Below the pieces are notes generated by a model. That model saw only the letters and a list, made by a program, of their open reading frames with translations, did not search any database and was not told the origin of the DNA. 64,000 bases of DNA from Pyrinomonadaceae bacterium (GTDB lineage: Bacteria > Acidobacteriota > Blastocatellia > Pyrinomonadales > Pyrinomonadaceae). This document shows positions 9,264-58,787 of the stretch, in pieces. Both the position numbers and the translations under genes were made by a program. Numbering within the stretch: the first letter of the stretch is position 1; every line of letters begins with the position of its first letter. The stretch spans positions 2,995 through 66,994 of the forward strand of contig DAIMCP010000020.1 in NCBI GenBank assembly GCA_036726305.1. Direction: 5' to 3'.

Positions 9264-9288
9264 CTTTGATTACTGGCGGCTATCTAAT

Positions 9289-10300: not shown

Positions 10301-10365
10301 CCTTTCTCTGGGGGGCCACAGCGGTGACCATTGAGGTTATATCCATCCGACCATCATGCACGGGG

Positions 10366-12810: not shown

Positions 12811-12821
12811 CCCTCAATCTC

Positions 12822-27810: not shown

Positions 27811-27830
27811 GCCAGTCCCCGAGAGTACTT

Positions 27831-35868: not shown

Positions 35869-36705
35869 CTAACTGATCATTTTTCCGTAGTAAACTCTTG
35901 TATCGTACTCGATGGTAACTTTGCCGTCCTGGTTGTAAGTCTCGAAAATCGCGCGCAGGTTGGCTAACATCGACTCCAGATCAGGATGCCCGGGGTCGGG
36001 AGAGTATGACGCTGAACAAATACGGCCCTCCAATCCCTCGTAGTCAAGGTATTGTAAGTTTTCAAAGCTGGCGAGTCTAAAAGCGCTTTTCCCAAAGAAA
36101 GCCGCGATATCTTTGTAGACATTTTCGTGGCGCACCTGCAAATAATCGGTGCCGAACCGGACCAGAAGCTCTTCAATTGCCCTCAGAAAGTCGCTTGTTT
36201 CAAGCCGGCGCTCGTTCCAGATCAGCGCAACCCATCCCTCAGGCCGCAAAATGCGTAGAAATTCCCTCGCTGCTCTTGCCTGATCAAACCAATGGAAAGC
36301 CTGGCCGGCAGTAATCAGGTCAACGCTATGGTCCGCGAGCGTTGTGTCCTCCGCCGTTCCGGGTACGCTTTTGAATCGCGGATAGGACGCCAGCAGCCGT
36401 TCGGCCGCCTCGCGCATGTTCTGATTGGGCTCGACGGCATAAACCTGGAAGCCATTTTGTAGCAGCAATTCTGAGAGAATACCGGTCCCGGAACCCACGT
36501 CAGCCAATACTGCCTCACGTGTCAAACCACACTCCGCATAAAGAAGATCAACGATTTCGCGTGGATAACTCGGACGATACTTGGCGTAGGCCTCAGCTCT
36601 GCTTGAAAAGCGTCTAACGGAATCCACCATTGCTTTGTTATGCAACTCCTCCAAAGAATTTGGCGCTATTCTAAGTTCAGCCCGCCCAAAACGGAAAAGG
36701 CTCAC
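35869..36705 (-). CDS. class I SAM-dependent methyltransferase
   Basis: Motif I 'VLADVGSGTGILSELL', post-I 'VYAVEPNQNM' and 'DLITAGQAFHWF'. Confidence 0.75.
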   Translation of the reverse strand: MSLFRFGRAELRIAPNSLEELHNKAMVDSVRRFSSRAEAYAKYRPSYPREIVDLLYAECGLTREAVLADVGSGTGILSELLLQNGFQVYAVEPNQNMREAAERLLASYPRFKSVPGTAEDTTLADHSVDLITAGQAFHWFDQARAAREFLRILRPEGWVALIWNERRLETSDFLRAIEELLVRFGTDYLQVRHENVYKDIAAFFGKSAFRLASFENLQYLDYEGLEGRICSASYSPDPGHPDLESMLANLRAIFETYNQDGKVTIEYDTRVYYGKMIS

Positions 36706-36864: not shown

Positions 36865-37527
36865 TTACCGCGGCGGAAACAACGACGCGCTTTGTGGCGG
36901 TGGGGGAGGCGCAAACCTAACCAACAGGCGATAGCCCAGCAAAAGCGCAAGAACAAACGCAAATGTCAACGGCAGACGTGTGTCTGATTTGACCAGCATC
37001 CAGTAGTGAAGTACGCCTCCCGCGCCTGCAAAGTAAACCAGCCGGTGCAAGCGATTCCAACGCTTGCCACCCAGCCGCTTAATCATCTTGTTGGTAGAGG
37101 TTATCGCGAGGGGCGTGAGCATGAAGAAAGCTGCCATGCCTACTGTGATGAAAGGCCGTTTGATCACATCCGCGGGTATGGTTGAAAGATTAAACAGACG
37201 ATCAAAGGCGATGTAAGTCAACAGGTGAAGAAAGCCATAAAAGAAAGCGAAAAGACCGACCATGCGCCGAAATCTAATAAGCCAGTTTGCGCCGGTAACT
37301 TTGCGGAGGGGCGTGACCGCGAGTGACAGCAGCAGGAAGACGAGGGTCAACATACCGGTAGTGCGCGTTACGAACTCGAGCGGATTTGCTCCCACCTGCT
37401 TGCGATAGACATCCCACAAAAGCAGGGTTAGCGGTACAAGGCTGTTGACGAAGAGGACAGTTTTTGAAAAGCGTGTGTCGAGCATATGAAAGTCGTTCAG
37501 ATTGTCAGTAGTTAGACACGTGCTCAA
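36865..37527 (-). CDS. msrQ: protein-methionine-sulfoxide reductase heme-binding membrane subunit
   Basis: About 6 TM segments, ferric-reductase-like, with conserved His residues ('FLHLLTY', 'HRLVY'). 4-nt overlap with upstream msrP. Confidence 0.8.
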
Positions 37528-38507
37528 AAATCCCGATGCAGATCCATCCCCTCATACAAATGTGCTACCTGCTCGGCATACCCGTTAAACATCAGCGTCT
37601 TGCGCCGACTGTACTCTCCAATGCGCCGCTCGGTCGCCTGGCTCCAGCGTGGATGATCCACATCCGGATTGACATTTGAATAGAATCCGTACTCATTTGG
37701 GGCCTGGATGTTCCAGGTGGTCGGAGGTTGTTCGGCCACCAGTTTGATTTTGACGATTGATTTGATGCCTTTAAATCCATATTTCCAGGGTACGACCAGG
37801 CGAATCGGAGCGCCGTCCTGGGGAGGCAACGTTTCTCCGTAGAGTCCGGTGGCGAGTATGGCCAGTGGATGCAGGGCCTCATCTATTCGCAATCCTTCGA
37901 CGTACGGCAAGTCTAATCCGCTGGCGAAGGCGTTTGGCATCCGTTTGGGATCATAGAACGACTGGAAGGCAACGTAGCGCGCCGCCGGCAGGGGCTCCAC
38001 TCTTTGCAGTAGTTTGAACAGGGGAAAGCCGACCCAGGGAATCACCATCGACCAGCCTTCAACACAGCGCATCCGATAGACTCGCTCCTCTTGTTCAATC
38101 CGAAGCAATTCCTCAAGGTCAAAAACTGCGGGCTTGTTAACTAACCCCTCGACAGAGACACTCCAGGGGCGGGTCACAAAACCCTTAGCTTCCGTTGCTA
38201 CAGAGCTCTTGGAGGTCGAGAATTCATAAAAATTGTTGTAATTCGTTATGTCTTCAAGGGAGGTCAGCTTCTCATTCACGGTAAAACCTGAATTCGCGGC
38301 TGAACTCGTAACGGACTGCACTGTCGCAATCTTCTCGCCTTTGGGCAATTCCGGCGGTGGAGCATTGAGACTTCGGTAGAGTAACCCCGTCGCGGTCGCT
38401 GTACCTGCCAGGATCGCTCCCTTCATAAACCAACGACGGTTAAAATAGTCCCGTTTGTCGGTAATCTGGCTCGCGTTGATGTCGCTGTCGCTCTTCATTA
38501 ATCTCAA
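37524..38507 (-). CDS. msrP: protein-methionine-sulfoxide reductase catalytic (molybdopterin) subunit
   Basis: Tat signal '[19 protein letters not shown]'. '[10 protein letters not shown]' and '[14 protein letters not shown]' are typical of YedY/MsrP. Confidence 0.85.
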
Positions 38508-38693
38508 GTTCCCAATTTAGCTGCAGATAATACGCTCCATCCTGGGCTAACGGTTTTCGCCAGCATAACGCCTATCCCTTTCAGGCGATAATGAACAGTC
38601 GTAAAGAGACTTGCAAACATTACACCTACGACGGAAAGTTCTCGTCAGTCTGAGGAATAATCTGTAGAATCCCCGCAATTTTTTGCAAATGCA

Positions 38694-39902
38694 ATGAAAA
38701 CGGCATCACCAACTGAACAGACTCCGGAAGGACACTGGGCGGCATTGTTGGCGGGTTTTCTCGGCTGGACACTCGATGCCTTCGATTTTTTCCTCGTCGT
38801 ATTTTCCTTAACGGCGATTGCCGAGGAATTCCATCGGCCGGATAAGGACATCGCCTTATCAATTGCCGTTACTCTGGCCTTTCGTCCGGTGGGTGCTTTC
38901 ATCTTCGGGTTGCTTGCCGACCGGTACGGCCGGCGACTGCCACTGATAATAGATCTCATTTTCTTTTCCGCGGTCGAGGTGCTTTCCGGACTTGCACCGA
39001 ACTACACCACCTTTCTCGTCTTGCGGGCGCTGTTTGGTATTGGAATGGGTGGCGAGTGGGGCGTAGGCGCCTCTCTGGCTATGGAGAAGGTGCCTCCTCG
39101 CTGGCGCGGAGTGCTATCCGGCCTGCTCCAGGAAGGTTATGCGGCTGGTTATCTGCTGGCGGCCGCTTGCTACTTCTTTGTTTTCCCGCACTGGGGCTGG
39201 CGGCCGATGTTTTTCATCGGGGGCTTACCAGCCCTGCTGGCAATTTATGTTCGCCTGCACGTAAAAGAATCAGAAGTTTGGAAGAAGACACGCCATGAGA
39301 ACTGGAGCCAGTTAGGCCGCGCCATTGTTTCGCACTGGAAATTGTTTATTTACCTGGTGTTGTTAATGATGATGATGAACTTCGTCTCACACGGTACTCA
39401 GGACATGTACCCGACACTGCTGAAACGTCAGTGGGGATTTAGCCCTCAGAAAGTGGCCGCAGTAACGGCGCTCTCAATGGTCGGGGCAATTGCCGGCGGA
39501 CTCGTCTTCGGACTTCTCTCAGATCGCTTTGGTCGCAAACGCTCAATGATCGCAGCGCTGCTCTGCGCGTTGGGTGTCATACCCCTGTGGGCTTTCTCAC
39601 CGTCGCTTGGTCTGCTGGTCGCAGGCGGTTTTCTGATGCAATTCATGGTTCAAGGAGCCTGGGGGGTCATACCGGCGCATCTGACTGAATTGTCTCCGGA
39701 TTCGGTACGCGGTTTCTTGCCAGGGTTTGCTTACCAGTGCGGCGTATTGCTGGCGGGTTTCGTTGCTTATATCGAAGCGATTTTCGCTCAGCGTATGAGT
39801 TATGCAAGCGCAATGGCATTGACTGCTTTCACTGTGTTCGTGGGTGCAATAATCATCACCGCTCTGGGTAGGGAACGGCACGGCATTCACTTTGGCGGTT
39901 GA
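38694..39902 (+). CDS. MFS transporter
   Basis: 12 predicted TM segments. 'LADRYGRR' (MFS motif A) and a second-half 'LSDRFGRKR'. Confidence 0.8.
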   Translation: MKTASPTEQTPEGHWAALLAGFLGWTLDAFDFFLVVFSLTAIAEEFHRPDKDIALSIAVTLAFRPVGAFIFGLLADRYGRRLPLIIDLIFFSAVEVLSGLAPNYTTFLVLRALFGIGMGGEWGVGASLAMEKVPPRWRGVLSGLLQEGYAAGYLLAAACYFFVFPHWGWRPMFFIGGLPALLAIYVRLHVKESEVWKKTRHENWSQLGRAIVSHWKLFIYLVLLMMMMNFVSHGTQDMYPTLLKRQWGFSPQKVAAVTALSMVGAIAGGLVFGLLSDRFGRKRSMIAALLCALGVIPLWAFSPSLGLLVAGGFLMQFMVQGAWGVIPAHLTELSPDSVRGFLPGFAYQCGVLLAGFVAYIEAIFAQRMSYASAMALTAFTVFVGAIIITALGRERHGIHFGG

Positions 39903-39924
39903 TTCAATTGCGAGATATACGGCC

Positions 39925-40602
39925 ATGAAGCCAGAGCACAAGCTGGAGATTGACGAGCTTGAAACGGAAATTGTCGGGCAAATCACTTCAATGGTGGGTC
40001 AAACCACTGATAAGGTACGTGCAGTCCGCCGCCATTATTCAAATAAAATCGCGCGACTCCCTCCTGAGTTGGTCATCAATCTGGCAATCAGGTTGGTCGA
40101 CAGTTCGGACTTCCTGCTTCGCTTTGTTGCTTATGAACTCGTCCATTACCACAGGCCGGCCTTGCACAGCCTGAATGCGACGATTCTGGAACGTCTGGGG
40201 CGGAGACTGGACAGTTGGTCTGCCGTCGATATATTCGCCAGTTACCTTGCAGGTCCCGCCTGGCGCGAGGGGCAGGTTCCAGACAAGCTGATTCATCGAT
40301 GGGGCCGCTCGGCGAATCGTTGGTTGCGCCGGGCCGCGCTGGTCAGTACAGTCCCGCTGAATAACAAGGCGCGAGGGGGACGGGGCGACGTGACTCGCAC
40401 CCTGGAAATCTGCGCAGCACTCAAGAACGACAGGGACGACATGGTTGTGAAGGCCCTGTCGTGGGCACTACGCGAGCTTGCAAAACGCGAACCAGGTTCC
40501 GTACGCGATTTTGTTAAGACGCATCGGCAATCGCTTCCGGCGAGGGTGTTGCGTGAAGTTAACCACAAACTTCAAACTGGTAGAAAATCACCCAGCCGAT
40601 AA
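39925..40602 (+). CDS. DNA alkylation repair (AlkD-like HEAT-repeat) protein
   Basis: 'W.RSANRWLRRAALVST' and 'VVKALSWALRELAKREP..VRDFV' resemble the DNA_alkylation family. The TTG at 39892 overlaps the MFS stop, so the ATG at 39925 is preferred. Confidence 0.6.
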   Translation: MKPEHKLEIDELETEIVGQITSMVGQTTDKVRAVRRHYSNKIARLPPELVINLAIRLVDSSDFLLRFVAYELVHYHRPALHSLNATILERLGRRLDSWSAVDIFASYLAGPAWREGQVPDKLIHRWGRSANRWLRRAALVSTVPLNNKARGGRGDVTRTLEICAALKNDRDDMVVKALSWALRELAKREPGSVRDFVKTHRQSLPARVLREVNHKLQTGRKSPSR

Positions 40603-40671
40603 ACTAACCGAAGCAGGAGCAGTTACCTTAAGTGGCGATCTCGGCAAGTTGCAGGTCTGACGGAGGACAAT

Positions 40672-41088
40672 ATGGCCGGTTATTCTGGAACCCCACTGGT
40701 AAAAAAATTAGGTATCAAGGCAGGATTTCGGATCGCCTTCGTGGGTGCTCCTGCGAATTTCGAGCGCGATCTAGGCCCGTTACCGGTCAATGTCCAAATC
40801 ATGTCGCGTCCAAGGCGGCCAATGGATTTTGTCTTATTGTTCTCTAAGTCTGCGACGAGCCTGGAAAACGATTTCAAAAGAACGGCCGCCATGCTCTCAG
40901 CCAATGGAATGTTATGGGTTTCCTGGCCCAAAAAAGCTGCGAATATGGCGACTGATCTTTCCGAGAATATTGTGCGGGCAATTGGGCTCGATGCGGGCTT
41001 GGTTGATGTGAAGGTGTGTGCCGTCAACGAAATATGGTCGGGACTGAAGTTTGTTTACCGTTTGCGGGATCGTGATCGTTTGCAATAG
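40672..41088 (+). CDS. DUF3052 domain protein
   Basis: 'MAGYSGTPLVKKLGIKAG' N-terminus typical of DUF3052. 138 aa. Confidence 0.65.
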   Translation: MAGYSGTPLVKKLGIKAGFRIAFVGAPANFERDLGPLPVNVQIMSRPRRPMDFVLLFSKSATSLENDFKRTAAMLSANGMLWVSWPKKAANMATDLSENIVRAIGLDAGLVDVKVCAVNEIWSGLKFVYRLRDRDRLQ

Positions 41089-41503
41089 TTTCGCATCGGC
41101 CGCCGTCGCAGGGTTTCCTTATCGGATATCTTCCGTCCAACGCGAATCTCAAAACCCATCCTGGAATCTAATTAGTCGGCGTTGATCGATCATTGCGCGA
41201 AAACTTCGGGAGCGAAAACTACTAATAGTGGGACCAGCGAAGCCTTCATCGAACCGGTTGCGCCAAACATACGGCGAACGCTTTCTCAGGAAGTGCGGAT
41301 AGCCTGTTTTTGTGGGTGAATTCATAAGTCTAAAATGTTGTTGCTAACGATTGACCACACGCTAACCTAAAATTGAAATTGCCATGCGATCATCTATCTT
41401 CCAATCGCAGAAATATTTGCAGCGCAAAAACAACTGAAGTGTAATTTGCTGATCAAAAAATCAGCGTTCGCACTGGATGGACCAGCTGGTTGAAAGAAAG
41501 TAG

Positions 41504-41531
41504 TTGCAAAAACTTTTGCGATAACTATAAT
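41504..41531 (+). promoter_or_regulatory. candidate sigma-70-type promoter (TTGCAA-N16-TATAAT) inside an 0.8-kb ORF-free AT-rich region
   Basis: Read directly: -35 TTGCAA at 41504..41509 and a perfect -10 TATAAT at 41526..41531. The next + strand start codon is about 365 nt downstream (41897). Confidence 0.3.
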
Positions 41532-41896
41532 CCCGATCCCTCGCTAAGAGTGATGATTGAAGCAAGTAAGAATTGAAAAGCGCGGCTCGTCTGGATCTCG
41601 AGGATTTGTTAGTTTTGGGTTGCTAAGCTCTCATAATATTTTTCTCGCATGTAGCCCTGGACCTTAAACTGCAAGTTGGATTCAGATTGGCGCAGATTGC
41701 AAAAAGTGAAACTGCGCTGGGCAGTCTCAGGCGGTCCTCCAGAATAAATTAGGAGTTTCTCCGCCAAACAATCATCTCAGTAAGAGCAGGTACGGACTGG
41801 AGGATGCGAGTCCCCGGCCCGAGGAAAAGTTTTTTCCTTTTTTTCGAAACTCGCACTCAAGTTCGTTCCGTAATTTGAGGTTGACGGAGTACTGAA

Positions 41897-42547
41897 ATGA
41901 TCGAACCTGTTCAAACGCTTACAAAGCAATGCCCGATTTGTGCCCAGGACTTGCCCCTGACGGAGTATGGAGTTTGCCGAGCTCGTAAAGATGGTCGGAA
42001 CCTTTATTGCAAGAGTTGCATTCGCAAGAAGGTAAGCGCCAGTCGCCGTGCTTTTAAGGCGTACAAGTCTGTGCGTCATCAATATGTTGCGGATAAAACT
42101 GACTCAGCCGCCAGACAGAAGGAACTTCCCGGCCCCCTGCCACCCCGACGCCATTACGTGGTGCGACAGGTCAATAAAATGACCCCCGTGGAACGAGTGC
42201 GTGAGGCGATCAGGAATGGGGCCCGAACCCAGAAAGAAATAGCTCAGGGGACAAAGCTGGGAAAAGACGAAATTGGAGATGCGCTGGCGAGTCTATTGCT
42301 GTGGACTCGCGAGATAAGAACCGAAGTAGTTGAAAGCCATCGAATCTATCTGATTAATGATTCGTCACCGGAATTGATGCAACGCCAGGAAAACCTACTG
42401 GCAAAAGAAGAAAACAACGAGGAACTGGGTCAACTTCCGCCCAGGAAGCGTGACGTACAGAGTTCCTTCAGCGTCGTGCAGGACTTGATGCCGGGAAAGC
42501 GGCCTGAGGGAGAGACCGAAAGACCGCCAGGGTGGGTCGCTGCCTAG
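41897..42547 (+). CDS. hypothetical protein with N-terminal zinc ribbon (CPIC...CKSC) and a possible winged-helix segment
   Basis: The ATG is preceded by GAGG. Four-Cys ribbon 'CPICAQD..(22)..CKSC'. Basic linker. 'TPVERVREAIRNGARTQKEIAQGTKL' is HTH-like. No family recognised. Confidence 0.4.
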   Translation: MIEPVQTLTKQCPICAQDLPLTEYGVCRARKDGRNLYCKSCIRKKVSASRRAFKAYKSVRHQYVADKTDSAARQKELPGPLPPRRHYVVRQVNKMTPVERVREAIRNGARTQKEIAQGTKLGKDEIGDALASLLLWTREIRTEVVESHRIYLINDSSPELMQRQENLLAKEENNEELGQLPPRKRDVQSSFSVVQDLMPGKRPEGETERPPGWVAA

Positions 42548-42554
42548 CTCGTAA

Positions 42555-43013
42555 TTAGCTGTTGAAAGCTTCCAGGACTTCGCGTGCGTGTTCGTCAGGC
42601 TTAACTTTCTCGAAGATTCGTTTGATTTTGCCTTTCTGGTCGATTAGGAACGTCTTGCGATGCACACCCATGTATGTCCTGCCCATGAACTTTTTCTGAC
42701 CATAGGTTTCATACTTGTCCGCGATCGAGTGATCGACGTCAGTCAGGAGAGTAAAAGGGAGTTTAAACTTCTTCGTAAATTTCTGGTGTGAAGCCTCGTT
42801 ATCGGTTGAGATTCCCAGTACTTTGATGTCCGCCTTCTGAAAATCCGCGAAAGAATCGCGAAAAGAACACGCCTCTTTGGTGCAACCGGGTGTATCATCC
42901 TTGGGATAAAAATAAAGAACTACTCTTTGACCTCTAAAGTCTTTGAGGCTGACTGATTGACCGTCCGCATCAGTGGTTTTGAAAGCTGGCGCCGTGCTTC
43001 CTTCTTTGAGCAT
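42555..43013 (-). CDS. bcp: thioredoxin-dependent peroxiredoxin Bcp (Cys form)
   Basis: 'FYPKDDTPGCTKEACSFRD' with the peroxidatic Cys as TGC. The ATG at 43013 lies 5 nt after AGGAG. 152 aa. Confidence 0.85.
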   Translation of the reverse strand: MLKEGSTAPAFKTTDADGQSVSLKDFRGQRVVLYFYPKDDTPGCTKEACSFRDSFADFQKADIKVLGISTDNEASHQKFTKKFKLPFTLLTDVDHSIADKYETYGQKKFMGRTYMGVHRKTFLIDQKGKIKRIFEKVKPDEHAREVLEAFNS

Positions 43014-43104
43014 CATTTCTCCTATGAACCGCTTCTGGTTTTCCTGTAAAGCCTGCTGGCATTCTAAGCGGAGCCGCATGACTGAGCAAATCCAACAAAA
43101 ATAA

Positions 43105-43554
43105 ATGGCGACTAGAAGGCGAAATAGCTATTGGATGGTAAAACAGGAGCCGGAAACCTACTCCTGGGACGACTTTGTACGCGACGGCGAAACAGATTGG
43201 ACCGGGGTGCGAAATTATCAGGCCCGTAACAACCTGCGGGAAATGAAGGTTGGGGACAGCGTTCTCTTTTATCATTCGGGCAAAGAGAAGTCGGTCGTGG
43301 GTGTGGCAGAGGTTCACAAGTCCGCTTATGCTGATCCAACGGCAAATGATGCGCAGTGGGTAGCTGTCGATTTAAGACCGGTGAAGCAGTTGGACGCAGC
43401 CGTGCCCCTGGCGGCAATTCGTTATGACAAGAGACTTAGCGGACTACCCTTAATTCGCCAGTCACAGCTTTCCGTAATGCCGCTCACCAGAGACGAATTC
43501 GACGCTATCGTAACCATGGGGAAAAGTAAGACGAGAAAAAAAGGTCGCAAATGA
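43105..43554 (+). CDS. EVE (PUA-like) domain protein
   Basis: 'YWMVKQEPETYSWDDF..DWTGVRNYQARNNLREMKVGDSVLFYHS' matches the EVE domain pattern. Confidence 0.8.
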   Translation: MATRRRNSYWMVKQEPETYSWDDFVRDGETDWTGVRNYQARNNLREMKVGDSVLFYHSGKEKSVVGVAEVHKSAYADPTANDAQWVAVDLRPVKQLDAAVPLAAIRYDKRLSGLPLIRQSQLSVMPLTRDEFDAIVTMGKSKTRKKGRK

Positions 43555-43582
43555 TGCTTAATTGATTGGGAGAGTGAACCAG

Positions 43583-43966
43583 ATGTTCTCGCAAGTAGAT
43601 TACACAATGATTATCGTCTCGGATATGGATCGTTCAGTTGAGTTCTATCGGGACAAATTGGGTATTCCGCTGAAGTTTCAATCACCCGACTGGACTGAGT
43701 TTCAGACCGGGGCCACGACGCTCGCGCTGCATGGTGGTGGTATTCGTCAACAACAGCCGCCGAGTGGCGATCCATCCAAGCAGGCAGGCACCTGCTCAAT
43801 CGGTTTTAACGTGGAGGATGTCGATAAGACTTTTGCGGAGTTGCAAGCCAGGGGAATCATCTTCGTAATGCCGCCCACCCAAAGAGAAGGCGAGGGGATT
43901 AAGCTCGCGGTCTGCATCGACCCTGACGGCTTGCCGGTTTCCTTTGCGCAAATGATCGCCCAATAA
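43583..43966 (+). CDS. VOC/glyoxalase-family protein
   Basis: 'VDYTMIIVSDMDRSVEFYRDKLG' N-terminal beta-alpha-beta module and a C-terminal 'DPDGLPVSF'. The ATG at 43583 has a GGGAGAG RBS. Confidence 0.75.
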   Translation: MFSQVDYTMIIVSDMDRSVEFYRDKLGIPLKFQSPDWTEFQTGATTLALHGGGIRQQQPPSGDPSKQAGTCSIGFNVEDVDKTFAELQARGIIFVMPPTQREGEGIKLAVCIDPDGLPVSFAQMIAQ

Positions 43967-44039: not shown

Positions 44040-45023
44040 TTAGTTTGGCGCTGGCGGCTGGATCAGATCCGGGATGCTAGCGATTGCTGCTGCCGGCAAC
44101 GGCTTGAGCCTAAGTTGCTCTGCGAGAAAAGCAAGCCGGTCGCTCCGCGCCTCAGCATTTAGCGCATGCGGGGCCTCGTAAAGCTTGAATCGCTTTGGCT
44201 GGCTAACAATTGCTTCATATTGTTTGGCGCGTTCAGGGTTTAAAAATCTTTCCTGAGTGGCGAATTGCAAGAAAACAAAGGCCGGTGCCGCGTGGGAGAC
44301 GTATTTGCCTGGATCTGACCAATCGTGTTTCCTAACGAACGCGTCGAATTTGTCGGGGCCTACTTTCTGTCGATAGTTCTGGTATTCCGGACTTTTCAGA
44401 TCGACTTCGTCAGAAAGAGCACCGGCCATCAGAACAAACGCCTTGAATCTGCGGTCAATCCCACTAAGAAAGCCGCCCACCGCAGCGTTATAACTGTGGC
44501 CAACGTAGGCAATTCGTTTCGGATCAACATCCTTCCGGGCCAGCAACAGGTCAAGACCGCGGCGCATATCCACTACTTGCTGGACAAGGTCAACGAACTG
44601 CTGCTCATTGAGCGGTTGGTTATTTTCTACGTGGCCGGGACGCGCGATTGGTCCGTCGGTCAAGAGTGAAATCACGCCGCTCTGGGCCAGTGCCACCGCC
44701 TCGTCAAGAAATTGTGTGCGGTTGCGGGCCGTTGAATTGCTCCAGTACCAATGTCCCCAGATCACGGCCGCGAACGGGCCCTTTCCCGGAGGCACGACCA
44801 GATAAGCCGGGACTTCGCCGCCTTTGGGACTTGAATAGGTGATGTCAAAGATAGCTGTACCAGCGCGATGCTCAATACCTTTCTCTTTGAGACCGAGGGG
44901 CGCTTTCCTGTCGTAGTCAAAGTGCCGAAGCATGTCGGCGTCCTGTGCGAGCCCCGGCGAAGCGCAAAAAGCAGCAATGGTAGTCAAAAAAAACACCTGC
45001 AAAACAGGAAGTGGGCTTCGCAT
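44040..45023 (-). CDS. secreted alpha/beta hydrolase (dienelactone hydrolase / acetyl esterase-like)
   Basis: The ATG at 45023 has an AGGAGG RBS and a signal peptide (VFFLTTIAAFCASPGLAQ). 'IAYVGHSYNAAVGG' is a nucleophile-elbow-like motif. The assignment is approximate. Confidence 0.5.
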   Translation of the reverse strand: MRSPLPVLQVFFLTTIAAFCASPGLAQDADMLRHFDYDRKAPLGLKEKGIEHRAGTAIFDITYSSPKGGEVPAYLVVPPGKGPFAAVIWGHWYWSNSTARNRTQFLDEAVALAQSGVISLLTDGPIARPGHVENNQPLNEQQFVDLVQQVVDMRRGLDLLLARKDVDPKRIAYVGHSYNAAVGGFLSGIDRRFKAFVLMAGALSDEVDLKSPEYQNYRQKVGPDKFDAFVRKHDWSDPGKYVSHAAPAFVFLQFATQERFLNPERAKQYEAIVSQPKRFKLYEAPHALNAEARSDRLAFLAEQLRLKPLPAAAIASIPDLIQPPAPN

Positions 45024-45139
45024 CGGCGGTTCCTCCTTTTCTTGCGTTTGGGCTGGCGGCGATAATTGACAATAGTATAGCTCCGGTGCGACGCTCTGCG
45101 AACACTGCACTATGCAATGAAACGAAAGGAGAACCGTTA

Positions 45140-46171
45140 ATGCGTCTGACTGAAATGGTTTCGTGCTCTGGTTGAGCGGCTAAGCTCGATCCCGGCATAC
45201 TCGCTCAGGTTTTGAGCGGGCTACCACCACAGCCTTTTGACGGAAATGTGATGGTTGGCTTTGACAAAGCCGACGACGCCGGAGTGTATCGACTGCGTGA
45301 AGACCTCGCGATCGTGCAGACAGTAGATTTTTTCACACCCATTGTTGACGATCCATTTGTATTTGGTCAGATCGCCGCGCTCAATTCCATCAACGACGTC
45401 TGGGCCATGGCGGGAACACCGGTGACGGCGCTGGCGATAACTTGCTTTCCCAAAAAGGGCGTTGATCCGGCCATTCTTGGGGAGATCATGCGCGGTGGGC
45501 TCGAGACTTTGAACCAGTACGGTGTCACTTTGATTGGAGGCCATAGTGTTGACAACCAGCAGATCATGTTTGGCTATTCGGTTACTGGAGTAATCGATCC
45601 GGGAAAGATCGCCACGAACGCCGGCGCGCGTCCGGGAGATGTAATCATCCTCACGAAGCCGATCGGCACCGGCGTCATTTCCACCGGGATCAAGTTTGGC
45701 AAATCCTCTGCGGAGATCGCCGCCGCGTCAGTCGCTACGATGTTGACACCAGGCAAGCACGCTGCTGAGGCAATGCGGGAATTCGACGTCAAAGGCGCAA
45801 CCGACGTCACGGGCTTTTCCCTCCTTGGCCATGCCTGGGAGATGGCGCGGGCCAGCAACGTGACCATAAAGATCGAACCCGGTTCGGTACCGTTGCTGGC
45901 CGGTGCGTTGGAGTTGGCCGCCGCCGGGATGCTCACCAGTGGCGATGGGACGAACCGAGCTTATGTGGGGGAAGACATTGAGCTTGGCGATGCAGTCGAC
46001 GAAAACTTGCGCAAGCTGTTTTTTGACCCGCAAACCGCCGGGGGAATGTTGATTGCCGTTCCCTCTGATCGCGCACAGGCATTATTAATGAGGTTGCGTG
46101 CCCATTATCCCCAGGCAAGCATAGTCGGCGTAGTCGTCGAGCGCGGGCCACGATTAATTACAGTGAACTAA
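45140..46171 (+). CDS. selD: selenide, water dikinase (selenophosphate synthetase), selenocysteine-containing form (TGA 45173..45175)
   Basis: The ATG at 45140 lies 8 nt after AGGAG. The N-terminus is '[25 protein letters not shown]', i.e. the (C/U)xxK active-site loop of SelD. It runs in frame into track ORF 45212..46171 ('DDAGVYRL', '[11 protein letters not shown]', 'SINDVWAMG'-like). The total of 343 aa is the normal SelD size. Confidence 0.9.
45200..45220 (+). promoter_or_regulatory. candidate bacterial SECIS hairpin for the selD UGA
   Basis: CUCGCUCA-GGUUU-UGAGCGGG: an 8-bp stem including one G-U pair, with an apical loop GGUUU. The loop G residues lie about 33 nt after the UGA. Confidence 0.5.
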
Positions 46172-46194
46172 CCATTCCCGGTAAGCAGGTAACC

Positions 46195-47613
46195 ATGGCC
46201 TCTACAATTCAGCAAATAACGCCGGCGAAAGCGCATTCAATTAGCGAGCTCTATCGGGCAGTCCGCGCCCGAACCATGCAGATCGTGGCGCCGTTGGAAA
46301 TTGAGGACTATGTGATTCAGACCGCCGACTTTATGAGCCCGCCGCGCTGGCACATCGGCCATACCTCCTGGTTTTTTGAAACTCTGCTGCAGGCACACCA
46401 GCCCGGCTACAAAATCTACTCTGAAGAATATCTGTTCTACTTCAACTCCTACTATGAGGGACTTGGCGAGCGAATAGCGCGGCCCAAACGCGGCACCAGG
46501 TCACGGCCTACGGTCAGGGACACGATTAGATATCGTAATCATGTCGACGTCGAAATGCTGCGGTTTCTGGACACGATTGACGAGCATTCGCAGAGAGAAG
46601 CGGTGTTGTCGCTTGTTCGACTCGGCCTTGAGCACGAGATGCAGCACCAGGAACTGCTCGTCTACGACATCAAACACCTGCTAGGCGATCAGTTTGATGC
46701 GCCCATCCAGCCTGCGCCGGTATCGTCGACCGAAGTCACCGGAATGGCCGAGATAGAAGGCGGCATGTTTTGGCTCGGTTACGGCGCGCAAGTCCAGAAC
46801 CCAGAGACCAAAGGCCAAGGTCCTTCTCACTTTGACTTCGCTTTCGATAACGAGAAACCCGCGCACCAGGTTTTCCTCCACGACTTTGCCATTGATCGCG
46901 CGCTTGTCAGCAATGGTGATTATCTTGAATTCATGCGCGCCGGCGGCTATCAGAACTTTCGCTGGTGGTTTTCCGAAGGCTGGGAGACGGTCAATCGTGA
47001 GCAGTGGGCTGCACCGATGTATTGGGAACTACACGATGGCCAATGGATGATTCGCGATTTCACCGGACTGAACGCTGCTGCAAGCAAAGCTAACGAACCA
47101 GTCTCACACGTCAGTTTTTTCGAAGCCTCGGCGTTTGCCAAATGGGCGGGAAAACGCCTGCCGACAGAAGCTGAATGGGAGAGAGCTGCCTGCGGTTCGA
47201 GTCACAACAAACCCTCGCGACCCGCGGGAGCTGCGGTGATCGCCCCTTATGGAAGTGGGCGTCGAAATTTTCCCTGGGGAAGCACTGTACCTACCGCAGC
47301 TAACGCCAATCTTTTTGAGAATGGCCTTTGGTCGGTGGCTACCATCGGCTCCTATCCAGCCGGGCAAAATGATCTCGGTTGCCAGCAGCTAATTGGCGAT
47401 GTATGGGAATGGACCACGTCCGATTACGTTCCCTATCCCGGCTTTAAATCCGAGTTCGATGAATACAACGACAAGTGGTTCGTCAATCAGAAAGTATTGC
47501 GCGGTGGTTCGTTCGCCACGCCGCAACTTCATATCCGCTCAACCTACCGAAATTTCTTCCACGCGCACGAACGGTGGATGGTTTCCGGCTTTCGTTGCGC
47601 CCGGAATTTATAA
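46195..47613 (+). CDS. EgtB/SenA-family sulfoxide (or selenoxide) synthase (DinB-like + FGE-sulfatase-like domains)
   Basis: '[15 protein letters not shown]' and '[15 protein letters not shown]' (His iron triad of the EgtB DinB domain). C-terminal FGE-like 'GDVWEWT', 'RGGSFAT' and 'GFRCAR'. No OvoA-type methyltransferase domain. Starts 23 nt after the selD stop. Confidence 0.8.
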
Positions 47614-47744
47614 CGTAACTGGCTAAGGCTCTGGCGTCAGCTCGACCTGTCAACAATCGCTTACGTTACACCGCGGCGTTGCGTCTAGTGGCCAATGTTT
47701 CATCTATGCAAAATGAGCACGGCAATTGTATAATGCCCGGACCC

Positions 47745-50700
47745 ATGAAACCGAGTCTCTTTCATCCAGCGGTAGCTAACTGGTTTGCGAAGCAGTTCCC
47801 AGGCGCTACGCCACCACAGGAACGGGCATGGCCAGCCATCAAGAACCGTGAGAACACGCTAATCGCGGCGCCGACCGGTTCCGGCAAGACGCTCGCGGCA
47901 TTTCTCGCGGCCATCGACGACCTGGTGCGGCTTGGCCTGGAAGATAAGCTCGAGGACACAACCCACGTCATTTACGTCTCGCCGCTCAAGGCTTTGAGCA
48001 ATGATATTCAGATCAACCTGCAAAAACCGCTTGAAGGAATTGAGCGCGAATTGCAGGCGTTGGGATTGCCGCCGGTAAACATTCGTACGCTGGTCCGGAC
48101 GGGTGATACCCCCGCAGCCGAACGCACGGCGATGACCAAGCGCCCGCCGCACATTTGTGTCACGACGCCGGAATCGCTTTTCATCCTTTTGACCAGCGAA
48201 GGCGGGCGTCGGATGTTGCGTACGGCGCGCACCCTGATTGTTGACGAAATACACGCCCTGGTGGGTGACAAGCGTGGTTCACACCTCGCCCTCTCGATTG
48301 AAAGGCTTGAGCATCTCGCCGCTCAGCATGAACTCGAAATGCAAAGCTCTCAGATCCAGAACCCCAGGCTTGAATTCCAACAACCCGCAGCCAACCTTCG
48401 ACATTCCCGTTTGGTGCGTATTGGACTATCAGCCACCCAGCGGCCCATCGAGGAAGTGGCCCGCTTTCTGGTTGGCACAGCCAATTTAAACAACGATGGA
48501 ATGCCCAACTGCACGATAGTTGACAGCGGTCATGTGCGCCGGCTCGATGTCGCAATTGAACTCCCTGAATCTCCTCTGCAGGCGGTAATGTCGGGCGAGG
48601 TCTGGGACGAAGTCTACGACCGTCTGGCCCAACTCATTCGCGAACACCACACAACTTTGATCTTCGTCAATACACGCCGGCTCGCAGAGCGAGTCGCGCG
48701 CCACCTCGGCGAGCGCATCGGCGACGAGAATATTGCCGCGCATCATGGCAGTCTCGCCCGTGAACAGCGTCTGGCTGCGGAGCAGCGCCTGAAAGCCGGT
48801 GAGTTGAGTGCGCTGGTAGCCACAGCCTCGCTGGAGTTAGGGATAGATATTGGGGACGTGAATCTGGTTTGCCAGCTCGCCTCGACGCGTTCGATAGCCA
48901 GCTTCCTGCAACGCGTGGGGCGCTCGAATCACACTGTCGAAGGGTTTCCGAAAGGCAGAATCTTTCCGCTCTCGCGCGATGAGCTGGTGGAATGTGCGGC
49001 TTTGATCGATTCTGTGCGCCGGGGAGAGTTAGATCAGGTGTCGATTCCGCAGCAACCGCTCGACATCCTCGCGCAGCAAGTCGTAGCTGCGGTCGCCGCC
49101 GAAGAATGGATTGAAGACGATCTCTTTGCGATGGTGCGAGGCGCCTATCCGTACCGGAATCTGGAGCGCAAAGACTTTGACGAAGTAATTCGCATGCTGG
49201 CCGAGGGGTTCGCGACCAAACGTGGCCGGCGGTCCGCATACGTGCATCATGACGCGGTAAATCATCGCTTGCGCGGCCGCCGCGGCGCCCGCCTCGCGGC
49301 AATCACCTCCGGGGGTGCGATTCCTGACACCGCTGACTATGCAGTGGTGCTCGAGCCGGGCGGTCTGGTCATCGGCAGCGTCAATGAAGATTTCGCCATC
49401 GAGAGTTTGCAGGGAGATATTTTTCAGCTGGGCAATACCTCCTGGCGCGTCTTGCGAGTCGAGCAGGGAAAAGTCCGGGTTGAGGATGCGCATGGCCAGC
49501 CGCCTTCGATTCCCTTCTGGTTGGGCGAAGCCCCGGCGCGCACGCATGAGCTTTCTGCGGCGGTCTCGCGTTTGCGCTCAGAAGTGGCCGAACGCGTTTC
49601 CGTCAGTAGCGCTGACTTAGATCTGCGGGTTGAGGCAAACGGAACAACAGTCGCGGCTGAGGCTCAATACCCCGAAGAAACAAAGTCCTCCATCGACACG
49701 ACTTCAAGTCTGCATTACCTGACGGACGAAGTTGGCATATCTCGCCCCGCAGCCGAACAGATTGTTGAATATCTCGCAGCATCGAAGATCGCTCTCGGCG
49801 TCATGCCGACACAGCAGGATATCGTGCTGGAACGCTTCTTTGACGATAGCGGCAGCATGCAATTGATCGTCCATGCTCCCTTTGGCAGTCGTTTGAATCG
49901 GGCCTGGGGTCTGGCTTTGCGCAAACGTTTTTGTCGCCAATTCAACTTTGAACTCCAGGCCGCGGCTACCGAAGACGCAATCATTTTATCGCTTGGTCCC
50001 ACACACAGCTTTCCGCTTGGCGATGTCTTTCACTATCTGAATTCCAAAACGGTCCGTGACCTGTTGTGTCAGGCATTGCTCGACGCTCCGATGTGGAACA
50101 TCCGCTGGCGCTGGAATGTGACGCGGGCCCTTGCGGTCCTGCGCCGTCGCGGCGGCAAAAAGATTCCCGCCCAGCTGCAGCGCATGAATGCCGAAGATCT
50201 GTTGACCGCGGTCTTTCCCGATCAGGTTGCCTGTGTCGAAAATCTTGGCGGCGGCCCACGCGAGATTCCCGAGCATCCCCTGGTTGCGCAAACTGTCAAA
50301 GATTGTCTGGAAGAGGCAATGGATATCGAAGGCCTCGAATCATTACTGCAATCAATCGAGCGTAATGAAAGAAATCTAATCGCGCGAGATATGGTCGAAG
50401 CATCGCCGCTTGCGGCTGAAATTTTGAACGCTCGTCCCTACGCTTTCCTGGACGACGCTCCGCTCGAGGAGCGTCGGACGCGCGCGGTGTTTCAGAGGCG
50501 CTGGCTGGATCCGGAAAAGGCGGCGGACATTGGCAGATTGGATCCTGCGGCAATCGAGCGTGTGCGGGAAGAAGTTTGGCCAGAGGCGCAGAATCCGGAT
50601 GAGCTGCATGACGCTCTGGTGGAGTTAGGATTCCTGACTGAGGCCGAAGGTGCAGAATGGCAAGAGTGGTTTGCCCAGCTGCAGGTCGACCGGCGAGCTG

Positions 50701-52418
50701 CTGTGCTCGTGACTGGGACCGAACCTGGGACCGAACCTGGGAGCGCAGGCATCCTGCCTGCCCCCTCGTCGAATGCCATTCAATCGGCGGCAGGCAGGAT
50801 GCCTGCGCTCCCAGGCAGGCTTTGGGTGGCAGCGGAACGCTTACCGCAACTACAGGCAATCTTCCCTTTCGCTTCCCTTTCCCCGCAGATTACCGCGCCG
50901 GAGAGCTACGCGCAAACAACCTGGTCTGGCGAAGACGCATTGGTTGAGATCGTACGTGGAAGGCTCGAAGGACTTGGTCCTGTTACGGCAGAAAGTCTGG
51001 CCATTTCACTTGGCTTGCCGTCCAGGGATATCGAGGCCGCCCTGCTCAAATTGGAAGCTGAGGGCTTCGTTATTCGCGGCAGCTTCTCAACCGGCGCAAG
51101 TGCTGTTGAATGGTGTGCGCGCCGTTTACTGGCGCGTATTCACAGTTACACGCTGAACCGACTACGGCAGGAGATAGAACCGGTTTCCAGCTCGGATTTC
51201 ATTCGCTTTCTGCTGGCCTGGCAAAAGGTTGCTCCCGATCACCAGATCGAAGGACCGGAGAGTCTGCGCGTCGTGCTTGAACAGCTGGAAGGATTTGAGG
51301 CCCCCGCAGCGGCCTGGGAGGGCGAATTGTTGCCCAGCCGGCTCATCGAATACGATCCCGTCTGGTTGGATGCACTATGTTTGTCGGGTGAAGTGATGTG
51401 GGCGCGCCTGACTCCGCCGGCGGCCCCCAAAAATGGTCCGGAAAGGTCCCGTGGATCGGGCCCGGTGCGCACAACGCCGATAGCGCTGATTCGACGTAAA
51501 AATCTGGCGGTTTGGAATTCTGTTTTTCCGCAACCTTGGCTGGAAGACATCAGATTTTCAAGCATCACAGAAGTTGTCTATAGCTATCTGCGCACCCGCG
51601 GCGCTTCTTTTTTCCATGACATTGTGGACAGTACCAAAATGCTGCGCGCCCAGGTGGAAGAGTCACTGGCTGAGCTGGTGGCTTACGGCCTGATTACTTC
51701 TGACAGCTTTACCGGCTTGCGCGCATTACTGACCCCGGCAAACCGCAAGACGCGCGCTGCAGCTCGGCACAAACATCGCCAACCGGTCTACGACATGGCC
51801 AGCGCCGGTCGCTGGTCGCTCCTGTCGAGAAACGCAGGAATTGAGTCTTCCGAAAATCCTGCAAGCGTTCCGCCAGCCAAACCCTCCGCAACTACTCCCC
51901 GGTGGCAAACCTTTGCAGCGGTTCCAGCGGAAACAAAAGAAGCCGTCGCGCGCATCCTGTTGCAACGTTACGGCGTCGTCTTCAAGCGCTTGCTGGAACG
52001 CGAAGGAATTGTGCTTCCCTGGCGCGATTTGCTGCGCGTTTATCATCGCTTGGAGGCGCGCGGGGAGATTCGAGGTGGCCGCTTTGTCGCAGGCATTTCG
52101 GGGGAACAATTCGCACTTCCTGACGCGGTCGGGTTGGTCAGATCTATCCGGCGCGCCCCGGAAAAGGGAATCATGATTTCGATTAGCGCCGCTGATCCAC
52201 TGAACCTTGCCGGATTGATCACGCCGGGGCCGCGGGTTACTGCTCATACTGCAAATCGCGTCCTTTACAGTGATGGCGCTCCAGTCGCTGCACTGGAGTC
52301 GGGCGAGACGCGCTTTCTGGTTGAAATGAGTCGTACCATGGAGTGGCAGGCCAAGGCTGCCTTGCTGCGAAAGGCCACGCCCCCGGTGCTGCGTTCATAC
52401 CTCAGCCGGCGCGCCTGA
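47745..52418 (+). CDS. lhr: large ATP-dependent helicase Lhr (DEAH box, full-length type)
   Basis: '[10 protein letters not shown]' (motif I), 'LIVDEIHAL' (DExH), 'SATQ', '[10 protein letters not shown]' and '[10 protein letters not shown]'. Long C-terminal extension. The ATG at 47745 is preferred within ORF 47679..52418. Confidence 0.85.
50739..50812. repeat. perfect 24-bp inverted repeat (26-nt spacer) embedded in frame in lhr
   Basis: GGGAGCGCAGGCATCCTGCCTGCC at 50739..50762 and its exact reverse complement at 50789..50812. Preceded by a tandem 12-nt duplication GGGACCGAACCT x2 (50715..50738). Confidence 0.9.
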
Positions 52419-56962: not shown

Positions 56963-58714
56963 ATGGATCAAAAAGAATTTGACCGTCCCAACAAACCTAC
57001 GGAGTGGACGCTAATGTTTTATTTCGCCAGCGACAATCCACTGGCGCCGGGAGTTATCTCGCAACTGAAAGCACTTAAGAACGCGGGGTATCATCGCGGC
57101 GTCAATGTTCTGGCGTATTTTGATCCTGAGGTTCGGGAAACACCGACGCACATCTTCGATGTTAACGCCATCGAGAAGATAGAGAGTGAGAAGCCACAAA
57201 TCGGTTTTGCAAATGATCCTTTCGTCAGGAACTTGATGTACGACAAATTATGGGGAGACGAGCTTTCCCGTGACGGCAAGACCCCAATCAGGCAGTTGCT
57301 GATCCAGCAACTGGAAAAGAGGAACTTTAAATTCAATCCACGGAAGCCTCCAGCGTCAAACGACGACGGAAATGACGATCATGGCCGGGCAAGTGATGAC
57401 AGGAGAACGCGGCCTCAATCGGGCCCGAAAGAGTCATTAGCCATGTTTTTGAACTTCTGTGCTGAGAAGTATCCGGCCGAGCACTATATGCTCTTCATTA
57501 TTGGACACGGGCAGATCGTGGGCGATGATGTGTTTCTCTATGACGAGCACGCAGCCAAACATGCGGTGACTTTGACGGAACTGGGCGAGGAGCTCAAGAA
57601 GTTCAAAGCTCATGAAAATGTTCGCAAGGCGGAGTTTGATTTAGTGAGTTTTCATAGCTGCTCAATGAGCAGCGTGGAGATCACTTCGGAACTGAAGGGG
57701 ACCGCAAAATTCATGTTGGCTTCACAAGGCACAGCGTTTGTGGGTAGTTGGCCCTATCTCTCGATATTGATCAGAATCTTCAATGATTTTGGGGAGCCTT
57801 CCCTGGATATCAAAGAAATGATCAAAAAGATGTTCTTCTACGTTCGCCACAATAGTACAGACTTTGTATTGGCCGGCTACTCGTTCGATCTTTGCCTTTG
57901 TGAGTTGGGAGAAGGCGGAGTGACGGCTGTTGAGAAGGCAATCAAAGATTTGGCCGCAGAGTTGAAAAGAGGTTTGGCTGAAGGAACTTCGCCGATTATC
58001 GCGGATGCCATTTTGCTGGCGCACTGGAGATCGCAGAGTTATTGGCAAGAGAATTACACTGATGTCTATGACTTCTGCTTTTGCCTTGAGCACTACTGTA
58101 ATGAGCTGGGAAATAACGTCGGGAATATGGGATCTATTCAAACAGCTGCTGGTAAGGTAATGGACGCGCTGATAGCCGAGAGACCTGGAGACGACAAGTA
58201 CGGTGAACGGTTAGTAACTATAGCGCAATTCGTCGGTCCGGGTTCCCAATATTCCCATGGCTTATCGGTTTTCTTTCCCTGGTCTGAGCCTCCGCAGGAC
58301 CGGCCGATCATGTCCCAATACCCAGGTTACGCTTTTCAAGAGAAAACCGACTGGTTTGGTTTTCTCAAAGAATATTTCAGGAGCACCATGCGCAAGAGTC
58401 GCAGGGAGGAGTCTGATCCGAGAATTCCTGCCCCGCACCAGAGTCCTGCTGAGGCACTGCGCGAAGACATGGCTGCAATCATGTTTGGCGCCGCCGGCGG
58501 CGCGAGCGTCCCCGGAGCCCTCGACGATGACGACCCGCCACCAGTTAAGACTCGACCGACAGATCCCATGGGTAAAGTCAGTCCACGCGATCCGATGGGG
58601 GGTGACTGTGCTTGTGGATCCATAAAGAACTTTCCACACGACACTCGTCCGCGCCTGTTACGAGCAAGAAACGCACAGTTAGATAAGGATGGCCCAACCT
58701 TCTTCAGCTTTTAG
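56963..58714 (+). CDS. clostripain-like (peptidase family C11, clan CD) cysteine peptidase, cytoplasmic
   Basis: GAAGGAG RBS. 'WTLMFYFASDNPL', catalytic-His context 'MLFIIGHGQ' and catalytic-Cys context 'LVSFHSCSMSSVE...ASQG', in the order typical of C11. No signal peptide. Confidence 0.7.
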   Translation: MDQKEFDRPNKPTEWTLMFYFASDNPLAPGVISQLKALKNAGYHRGVNVLAYFDPEVRETPTHIFDVNAIEKIESEKPQIGFANDPFVRNLMYDKLWGDELSRDGKTPIRQLLIQQLEKRNFKFNPRKPPASNDDGNDDHGRASDDRRTRPQSGPKESLAMFLNFCAEKYPAEHYMLFIIGHGQIVGDDVFLYDEHAAKHAVTLTELGEELKKFKAHENVRKAEFDLVSFHSCSMSSVEITSELKGTAKFMLASQGTAFVGSWPYLSILIRIFNDFGEPSLDIKEMIKKMFFYVRHNSTDFVLAGYSFDLCLCELGEGGVTAVEKAIKDLAAELKRGLAEGTSPIIADAILLAHWRSQSYWQENYTDVYDFCFCLEHYCNELGNNVGNMGSIQTAAGKVMDALIAERPGDDKYGERLVTIAQFVGPGSQYSHGLSVFFPWSEPPQDRPIMSQYPGYAFQEKTDWFGFLKEYFRSTMRKSRREESDPRIPAPHQSPAEALREDMAAIMFGAAGGASVPGALDDDDPPPVKTRPTDPMGKVSPRDPMGGDCACGSIKNFPHDTRPRLLRARNAQLDKDGPTFFSF

Positions 58715-58730
58715 TGAGGTCCGGTAGGAA

Positions 58731-58760
58731 AAGGGGCGGCATGACCGCCCTTTTTCTTTC
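58731..58760 (+). terminator. strong rho-independent terminator between the C11 and CHAT genes
   Basis: AAGGGGCGG-CATGA-CCGCCCTT followed by TTTCTTTC, 17 nt after the C11 stop codon. Confidence 0.75.
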
Positions 58761-58787
58761 ATTTTCTCTCGCTATCAGAGTGAAAAC

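Follow-up and report, generated by a model that had tools for sequence, protein, structure and literature searches.

Does a selD gene that is followed after only 23 nt by a gene for an EgtB/SenA-like enzyme serve the biosynthesis of a selenium-containing small molecule, or do two enzymes with separate tasks share one locus? Such a pair lies within a 64,000-nt stretch of DNA from a Pyrinomonadaceae bacterium (contig DAIMCP010000020.1), which was analyzed as a whole and is referred to here as the window. A previous sequence-only reading of this locus had described the pair, its spacing and its common strand, all of which were confirmed, and had suggested a selenoneine-type pairing that lacks a visible senB. 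Research on small molecules that contain selenium is recent: the sen cluster was described in 2022 (Kayrouz and Seyedsayamdost) and the ovs cluster in 2024 (PMC11030361), and both were found via the neighbors of selD or via unusual active-site motifs. The sen cluster likewise places a SelD homologue beside a same-strand EgtB homologue. However, it needs senA, senB, and senC, and of these the window holds a SelD homologue only, with neither a SenB (TIGR04348) nor a SenA. The explanation that we favor, with a probability of roughly 60%, is that two ordinary enzymes, which do not share a pathway, are encoded by a conserved and probably co-transcribed pair of genes. It rests on the assignment of the EgtB-like protein to the cysteine-using type II enzymes, on the nature of SelD, and on the comparison of related loci.

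Assignment of the EgtB-like protein

The 472-aa protein encoded downstream of selD has the same DinB_2 and FGE architecture (Table 1) and the same specified motif residues as the EgtB of C. thermophilum (CthEgtB; PDB 6O6L, 6QKI, and 8QF6), a characterized enzyme that uses cysteine. The DinB-like histidine triad motifs noticed earlier, including EHEMQHQE, are present, the FGE C-terminal domain was confirmed by Pfam, and the Pfam scan of the protein returned no methyltransferase domain, neither of the OvoA type, as had been stated before, nor of any other. An exact look-up of the protein gave no record, and its context was therefore taken from orthologues; the source annotations of its homologues read EgtB. 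Among structures in the PDB, CthEgtB was the top match (322 bits, E 5e-95), followed by OvsA (170 bits), type I EgtB (160 bits), and SenA (116 bits).

The same order was obtained with protein family models. The window protein scored 463.9 bits on the EgtB model TIGR03440 (cut-off 360) and 341.9 bits on the SenA model NF041186, below the cut-off of 420. CthEgtB reached 575 and 359 bits on these two models, respectively, and an orthologue of the window protein from a related metagenomic locus, L011, reached 466 and 347 bits. Two SenA proteins served as controls, one from the same locus L011 (349 and 508 bits) and one from Methylorubrum populi (281 and 426.8 bits). The window protein does not exceed the cysteine-using CthEgtB on the SenA model and thus shows no drift toward SenA.

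Composite motifs of 17 positions have been used to sort these enzymes and read xSHHYYRRHQHxYNFFx for EgtB-II and xNEH--HRHxHYYN(F/Y)(F/Y)R for SenA (PMC11030361). When the proteins were aligned jointly, the residues of the window protein were S48, H53, H56, Y86, Y87, R96, R99, H147, Q150, H151, (F421), Y424, N453, F454, and F455, so that each of the 14 specified positions has the EgtB-II residue; the x at either end of the motif was left unread. This match includes the thiol-binding arginine pair and the Tyr-Tyr insertion, the latter a gap in SenA. A pattern search recovered 13 of the residues (all but Y424) from 67 or more of 80 orthologues. The SenA motif is departed from at S48/H53 (instead of N/E), by the Y86/Y87 insertion, at R96 (instead of His), at Q150, and at F421, which occupies the position of the catalytic Tyr. 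In SenA of V. paradoxus, Asn63 and Glu68 are needed for binding of the selenosugar SeGlcNAc, and Arg120 also takes part in binding (PMC11237966). Their counterparts in the window protein are Ser48 and His53, and only the arginine is shared (R99), a residue that EgtBs have as well.

Four independent lines, namely the family models, the solved structures, the motif residues, and a low identity to SenA, thus assign the 472-aa protein to type II EgtB, as a divergent member, and not to SenA, and from its residue identity with CthEgtB we infer cysteine and hercynine as its substrates. Two other identities were considered and rejected. For SenA, the model cut-offs, the composite motif, the selenosugar residues, an identity of only 26% to the characterized V. 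paradoxus SenA (sequence from the preprint supplement), and the presence of a true SenA next to its orthologue in L011 were decisive. For OvoA/OvsA, the protein reached only 113 of the 400 bits that ovoA_Nterm requires, the methyltransferase domain is missing, and the aromatic residues of the hercynine type are kept. OvsA belongs to the ovs cluster (ovsA-ovsM with senB/senC), which produces ovoselenol and in which SelD is likewise accompanied by a non-haem iron enzyme from this superfamily (PMC11030361). Although OvsA is the second-best PDB class for the window protein, its motif (N-E-H, His-Arg, and M-Q-A at the histidine site) is not found there, and the window protein, unlike OvsA, keeps the bulky F454/F455 typical of hercynine-accepting enzymes. 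Neither an OvsM-like methyltransferase nor senB was found among the open reading frames (ORFs) of the window.

SelD and its selenocysteine codon

The selD frame runs from ATG to stop through a single in-frame TGA (Table 1), and the mechanical ORF list places the start at 45212, i.e., 3' of this codon. With the U replaced by C, the translated protein scored 357 bits on the selD equivalog model TIGR00476 (cut-off 125) and barely cleared a second one, NF002098 (299.6 bits at a cut-off of 299). The TGA occurs at the identical codon in 64 of the 64 orthologues with an available N-terminus, and the peptide is conserved on either side. The spacing between U and K matches that between Cys17 and Lys20 of E. 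coli SelD. A hairpin resembling a selenocysteine insertion sequence (SECIS) begins 27 nt past the UGA and was also obtained when the single sequence was folded. In the RNAalifold analysis of 29 sequences, its pairs hardly changed at synonymous sites, apart from a single compensatory exchange from U-A to C-G; with so little variation in the stem, support from covariation is thin.

Taken together, SelD is a genuine selenoprotein, a point that was absent from the sequence-only reading. As SelD itself contains selenocysteine (Sec), the organism must decode this amino acid, and SelD would therefore have an ordinary supply job. Its orthologues, found upstream of egtB in the related loci, are 67–83% identical. 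With housekeeping SelD of the Sec type, the protein has in common that it passes the selD equivalog models and that it possesses the U-x-x-K active-site loop and the hairpin after the UGA. In contrast, housekeeping selD genes usually adjoin selA, selB, selU, or yedF, which the window selD does not, its conserved neighbor being egtB. The identity to SenC of V. paradoxus, which has Cys at the position of Sec, amounts to 36%.

Conservation of the selD-egtB linkage

The best 80 genomic relatives (63–78% identity) were all derived from metagenome-assembled genomes (MAGs) of Pyrinomonadaceae/Blastocatellia (Acidobacteriota). Of the related loci, 53 reach at least 3.2 kb upstream of egtB, and in all 53 a same-strand selD precedes egtB; the nine loci without selD were all truncated. 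Among the closer relatives, the entire block p216-Bcp-EVE-VOC-hydrolase-selD-egtB-lhr is syntenic, and the adjacency alone therefore proves little there. For this reason, the loci whose EgtB is 60–69% identical to the window protein were regarded separately as a divergent tier. Here, selD was kept in 14 of 14 loci, the hydrolase gene flanking selD in 7 of 14 (Fisher p = 0.006 vs selD), lhr flanking egtB in 7 of 19 (p = 0.0002), and the genes for EVE, Bcp, and p216 in 4 of 14 each (p = 0.0002 for EVE), where all p-values overstate independence because the genomes are related. Across loci with at least 8 kb of upstream sequence, a hydrolase-like gene was present in 18 of 45. The selD-egtB adjacency exceeds chance and background synteny, and the pairing described for the window thus holds in its relatives.

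Of 71 loci, 33 have a gap of up to 100 nt between both genes, 15 one of 100–450 nt, and 23 a longer one. In the window, no terminator-like site was detected on the + strand between 45140 and 47613, and the short gap together with this result suggests that selD and egtB are probably co-transcribed.

Divergence of the selD-linked clade

Within EgtB-II, the selD-linked proteins form a distinct group. They are 39–45% identical to canonical EgtB-II, whose members share 57–65% among themselves across phyla and score 575–602 bits on TIGR03440, above the window protein. A relatives scan that covered 1.84 billion cluster representatives returned graded relatives at 57%, 51%, and 47% identity, aligning in a single stretch, before the bulk of canonical EgtB-II. 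Clade relatives align to the window protein in one stretch as well, canonical EgtB-II representatives in two, and its PDB alignment is divided in the same manner (query 18–332 and 399–471). This split marks the insert listed in Table 1, the length of which differs within the clade (proteins of 455–496 aa); the L011 orthologue has a further insert near aa 196–236.

In a neighbor-joining tree with 200 bootstraps and a limited outgroup sample, all EgtB-II including the window clade were split from SenA and EgtB-I at 100% bootstrap. The selD-linked clade itself was likewise recovered at 100% and joined the intermediates at 60–76%, on a branch with egtD-linked basal members. According to the sequence-only reading, a selenoneine role would have to be given up for a protein that nests firmly among cysteine-using EgtBs which never neighbor selD. 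The protein does nest in cysteine-type EgtB-II, apart from SenA, but its sub-clade always neighbors selD.

The gene that accompanies EgtB-II elsewhere is egtD (PF10017). It directly follows canonical EgtB-II genes in Chloracidobacterium, another Blastocatellia MAG, Bryobacterales, Nitrosococcus, and a 2.66-Mb contig, with an overlap of 1 or 4 nt in four of these loci and a distance of 2 nt in the Bryobacterales locus, and no selD was found near any of the five. The relatives at 51% and 47% identity (P0362 and P0364, the nearest outgroups) adjoin egtD and lack selD as well. The simplest history is that of an egtB-egtD ancestor which lost the adjacency to egtD and gained that to selD at the base of the Pyrinomonadaceae. 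Compared with canonical EgtB-II, the clade of the window protein is hence set apart by an insert, a deletion, substitutions, and adjacency to selD rather than egtD. In the literature searched, we found no description of a clade of EgtB-II that has left egtD and is held beside a selenoprotein SelD across one family of soil Acidobacteria, although both proteins belong to known families and are thus annotated in public sources.

Two loci with the 47%-identical outgroup EgtB (L108, 217–7084, and L109) showed a further arrangement. A prolyl-tRNA synthetase gene precedes egtB with a 4-nt overlap, and a convergent gene for a 372-aa EgtD overlaps it. In L108, genes for TusA and a PALP (cysteine synthase-like) protein are located upstream.

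Possible functions of the pair

In the favored explanation, each protein carries out the ordinary task of its family. SelD would supply selenophosphate for Sec-tRNA and possibly for 2-selenouridine. The EgtB-II, with Fe(II) and O2, would link hercynine at its C2 to the sulfur atom of free L-cysteine, and the resulting hercynylcysteine sulfoxide would be an intermediate en route to ergothioneine, with the hercynine supplied by an egtD that we infer to be encoded elsewhere in the genome. The linkage would then most plausibly reflect co-expression in a redox, stress, and repair neighborhood and not shared chemistry. The neighboring and inserted genes are indeed mostly devoted to stress or repair (Bcp, VOC, DNA-alkylation repair, Lhr, photolyase, and FAD disulfide reductase). 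Of the three options left by the sequence-only reading, i.e., a senB or egtD elsewhere, a different selenium donor, or an adjacency by coincidence, an egtD elsewhere combined with an adjacency outside any shared pathway fits best, and a senB elsewhere with the 472-aa protein in the role of SenA is very unlikely.

Several observations weigh against this explanation. The linkage to selD outlasts either flanking junction, and this better retention suggests a selection that the absence of a shared pathway leaves unexplained. The proposed co-regulation, on the other hand, is deduced from the DNA sequence, and in 23 of 71 loci unrelated genes have entered the junction, in one case on the opposite strand. 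Furthermore, egtD adjoins egtB in all seven other EgtB-II loci examined (the five canonical ones and the two outgroups), in line with the earlier remark that egtB usually sits beside egtD and does not do so here. By tblastn, no egtD was detected within 10 kb of egtB in the 82 related loci, and a homology search with EgtD gave no match attributable to Pyrinomonadaceae; two contigs of approximately 2.66 Mb, one with EgtD and one with an EgtB of the clade, come from different samples. Finally, the clade shows specific changes near conserved motifs, namely at EHEMQHQE (E146) and in a 3-residue deletion before the EYN motif (Y424), besides F440 and H456/H458, and its divergence may indicate an altered use of substrates.

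The main rival, which we consider unlikely but worth serious attention, is a neutral linkage: a single ancestral adjacency in the Pyrinomonadaceae would have been kept by closeness and co-orientation, with functions and regulation of both genes unrelated. Synteny of the block from p216 to lhr in closer relatives agrees with it, as does the fact that all sampled genomes belong to one family, because of which the 53 cases are not independent events. EgtB is also not among the top ten gene families overlapping selD (Kayrouz and Seyedsayamdost, Supplementary Table 1). In addition, the junction has taken up unrelated genes. A photolyase-like gene (approximately 460 aa, Pfam DNA_photolyase) was found on the same strand in nine loci (L027, L028, L031, L033, L034, L042, L046, L056, and L064) and a FAD disulfide oxidoreductase gene in four (L011, 8321–9709; L049; L066; L080); the remainder includes a protein kinase, a Uma2-like gene, and the opposite-strand gene. 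However, inserts of up to 2.9 kb have never inverted the pair or separated it further, and in the divergent tier the pair was retained throughout, whereas half of the loci or fewer kept the flanking genes. As a side observation, the FAD protein is a pyridine-nucleotide disulfide oxidoreductase like RclA, MerA, or lipoamide dehydrogenase that stays below every NCBIfam cut-off; it could be a thiol/selenol-disulfide reductase tied to these metabolites.

Less probable still is a route to selenoneine that does without SenB and a selenosugar, in which the EgtB-II sub-clade couples a SelD-dependent donor (free selenocysteine or a different selenol derived from selenophosphate) to hercynine. Such a route would account for a selD linkage stronger than that of the flanks, for the loss of an otherwise universal egtD adjacency at the time when selD was gained, and for a divergent clade with changes close to active-site motifs. 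A precedent is available as well: Egt1 of S. pombe, a cysteine-type sulfoxide synthase, also forms the C-Se bond and, given selenium, produces selenoneine through hercynylselenocysteine (PMC4020840), the sole precedent for SenB-free selenoneine. Egt1 differs from the window protein in being a fused EgtD-EgtB of a eukaryote, with non-specific entry of selenium and no linkage to SelD. Moreover, the egt and sen pathways co-occur above expectation (PMC11030361). On the contrary, all thiol-binding and catalytic residues fit the pattern of cysteine-using type II enzymes, and neither the window nor the related loci revealed an enzyme for the conversion of selenophosphate to a free small selenol. Bacterial ergothioneine enzymes gave no selenoneine in vitro, and strains with egt only made none (Kayrouz preprint). 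That the sub-clade, which exchanged its egtD neighbor for SelD and has held on to the latter despite extensive rearrangement, is the core of such a route, to selenoneine or another hercynine-derived selenol, with a cysteine pocket that takes a SelD-dependent selenium donor, is in our view slightly more doubtful again.

A locus with a true SenA is informative in this respect. A tblastn search with the SenB of a M. populi plasmid, named as such by the Prokaryotic Genome Annotation Pipeline (PGAP), matched exactly one related locus, L011, and with three SenB queries the other 81 of the 82 related loci gave no match. On this contig of a Pyrinomonadaceae MAG, the gene order is hydrolase, selD, FAD disulfide oxidoreductase, egtB-like orthologue, SenA, and SenB, and the genes from selD through senB lie consecutively on one strand (7096–13853). 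SenA clears its model by far, and SenB scored 390 bits (TIGR04348, cut-off 300). As the window-type enzyme and a true SenA stand side by side, they are not functional equivalents, and a selD-egtB pair that made selenoneine by itself would leave the acquired senA-senB redundant. The run from selD to senB would constitute an ergothioneine/selenoneine island, and this docking of sen genes fits the reported enrichment of egt/sen co-occurrence (PMC11030361). Because the contig ends 85 nt after senB, L011 could also have its own senC. A metagenome scan with the L011 SenB returned 14 loci, of which the informative ones were canonical senC/senA/senB clusters or short fragments. None of these contains an EgtB-II-like gene, and L011 is therefore an isolated acquisition.

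The SenA/SenC-like pairing proposed at the outset thus finds no support, and a classical sen pathway, with senB elsewhere, the 472-aa protein acting as SenA on a selenosugar, and SelD acting as SenC, is essentially excluded, since, despite a gene order resembling senC-senA (L103) and the chromosomal separation that ovs genes can show (PMC11030361), the protein failed the SenA model which the L011 SenA passes, has Ser/His for Asn/Glu, Arg for His at the first position of the thiol site, as well as the Tyr-Tyr insertion, is distant from V. paradoxus SenA, and has no senB in the window or in any related locus but L011, where SenB comes with its own SenA.

On the M. populi plasmid pMPPM01 (L087, 3990–6976), the 3' end of the senA annotated by PGAP overlaps an IS6-family transposase gene, and the C-terminus no longer aligns with SenAs. 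No senC was found within the 11-kb stretch, and the locus is probably a decaying sen cluster.

With two ordinary enzymes as the preferred explanation, the locus illustrates how far function can be read from gene neighborhood: its selD-EgtB pair mimics a truncated sen cluster, yet it appears to encode a cysteine-type enzyme of ergothioneine biosynthesis. Published motifs and model cut-offs separate EgtB-II from SenA cleanly. If the linkage reflects co-regulation, the supply of selenoproteins and ergothioneine would be connected in redox defense; in the case of shared chemistry, C-Se bonds would have a third route of formation.

Locus layout and further observations

The coordinates of the pair, its elements, and its neighbors are summarized in Table 1. 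The flanking genes correspond to those named in the sequence-only reading, with a divergent hydrolase-like gene upstream and lhr downstream. The hydrolase-like protein gave no Pfam or NCBIfam match, and its weak PDB matches comprise an S9 peptidase, a MHETase, and an alpha/beta hydrolase. The lhr orthologue bears the Pfam domains DEAD, Helicase_C, WHD_Lhr, and DEAD_assoc.

Table 1. Positions of the selD-egtB pair, its sequence elements, and neighboring genes in the window.
Feature	Position	Strand	Basis or remark
selD, selenide, water dikinase (selenophosphate synthetase), Sec type	45140..46171	+	TIGR00476, Pfam AIRS + AIRS_C, translation
In-frame UGA read as Sec, codon 12, motif SG-U-AAK	45173..45175	+	TGA conserved among orthologues
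SECIS-like hairpin, 9-bp stem CUCGCUCAG/UUGAGCGGG, 3-nt apical loop (GUU here)	45200..45220	+	RNAalifold
Spacer selD-egtB, 23 nt	46172..46194	+	Sequence, terminator scan
egtB-like gene, non-haem iron sulfoxide synthase, type II class, 472 aa	46195..47613	+	TIGR03440, PDB, composite motif
DinB_2 domain (PF12867), aa 20-154	46252..46656	+	Iron-binding H56, H147, H151; catalytic Tyr pair Y86/Y87
FGE-sulfatase domain (PF03781, C-type lectin-like), aa 181-470, 161 bits	46735..47604	+	Hercynine-binding Y424/N453/F454
Insert, ~40 extra residues vs canonical EgtB-II, within aa 333-398	47191..47388	+	Split PDB alignment
Alpha/beta-hydrolase-like gene, secreted, divergent from selD; likely true start Met30 at 45023	44040..45110	-	ORF, weak PDB matches
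lhr-type large helicase, directly downstream of egtB-like gene	47679..52418	+	Pfam on orthologue
MsrPQ-like molybdopterin oxidoreductase + ferric-reductase-like membrane partner	36865-38507	-	
DNA alkylation repair protein	39892-40602		
Bcp/AhpC peroxiredoxin	42555-43079	-	
EVE-domain protein	43105-43554		
VOC/glyoxalase protein	43562-43966		

The absence of a glycosyltransferase or senB near the pair, as stated previously, was confirmed by the ORF scan and by tblastn. Among the window ORFs of at least 200 aa, there was no EgtD (PF10017), glycosyltransferase, SelA, SelB, or SelU, and tblastn searches of the window with five EgtD queries (four plus the EgtD of V. paradoxus) and with SenB of M. 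populi, V. paradoxus, and L011 gave no match. The methyltransferase gene at 35869–36705 (Methyltransf_11) is generic and not EgtD-like. The 64 kb contain no tRNA, hence no tRNA-Sec, and no Rfam match.

Upstream of the pair, a run of redox and repair genes extends over 36865–43966 and also includes an MFS transporter gene. Three further gene groups of the window were noted. An AAA_16 ATPase gene is followed by one for a 1165-aa AAA-TPR-BTAD regulator (26935–31328), and a subtilase with an SLH domain is encoded at 31639–34623. At 56963–61625, unrelated to the selD-egtB pair, a gene for a clostripain-family protein (Peptidase_C11) is directly followed by one for a 945-aa TPR-CHAT protein, and both may form a caspase-like or CHAT protease module.

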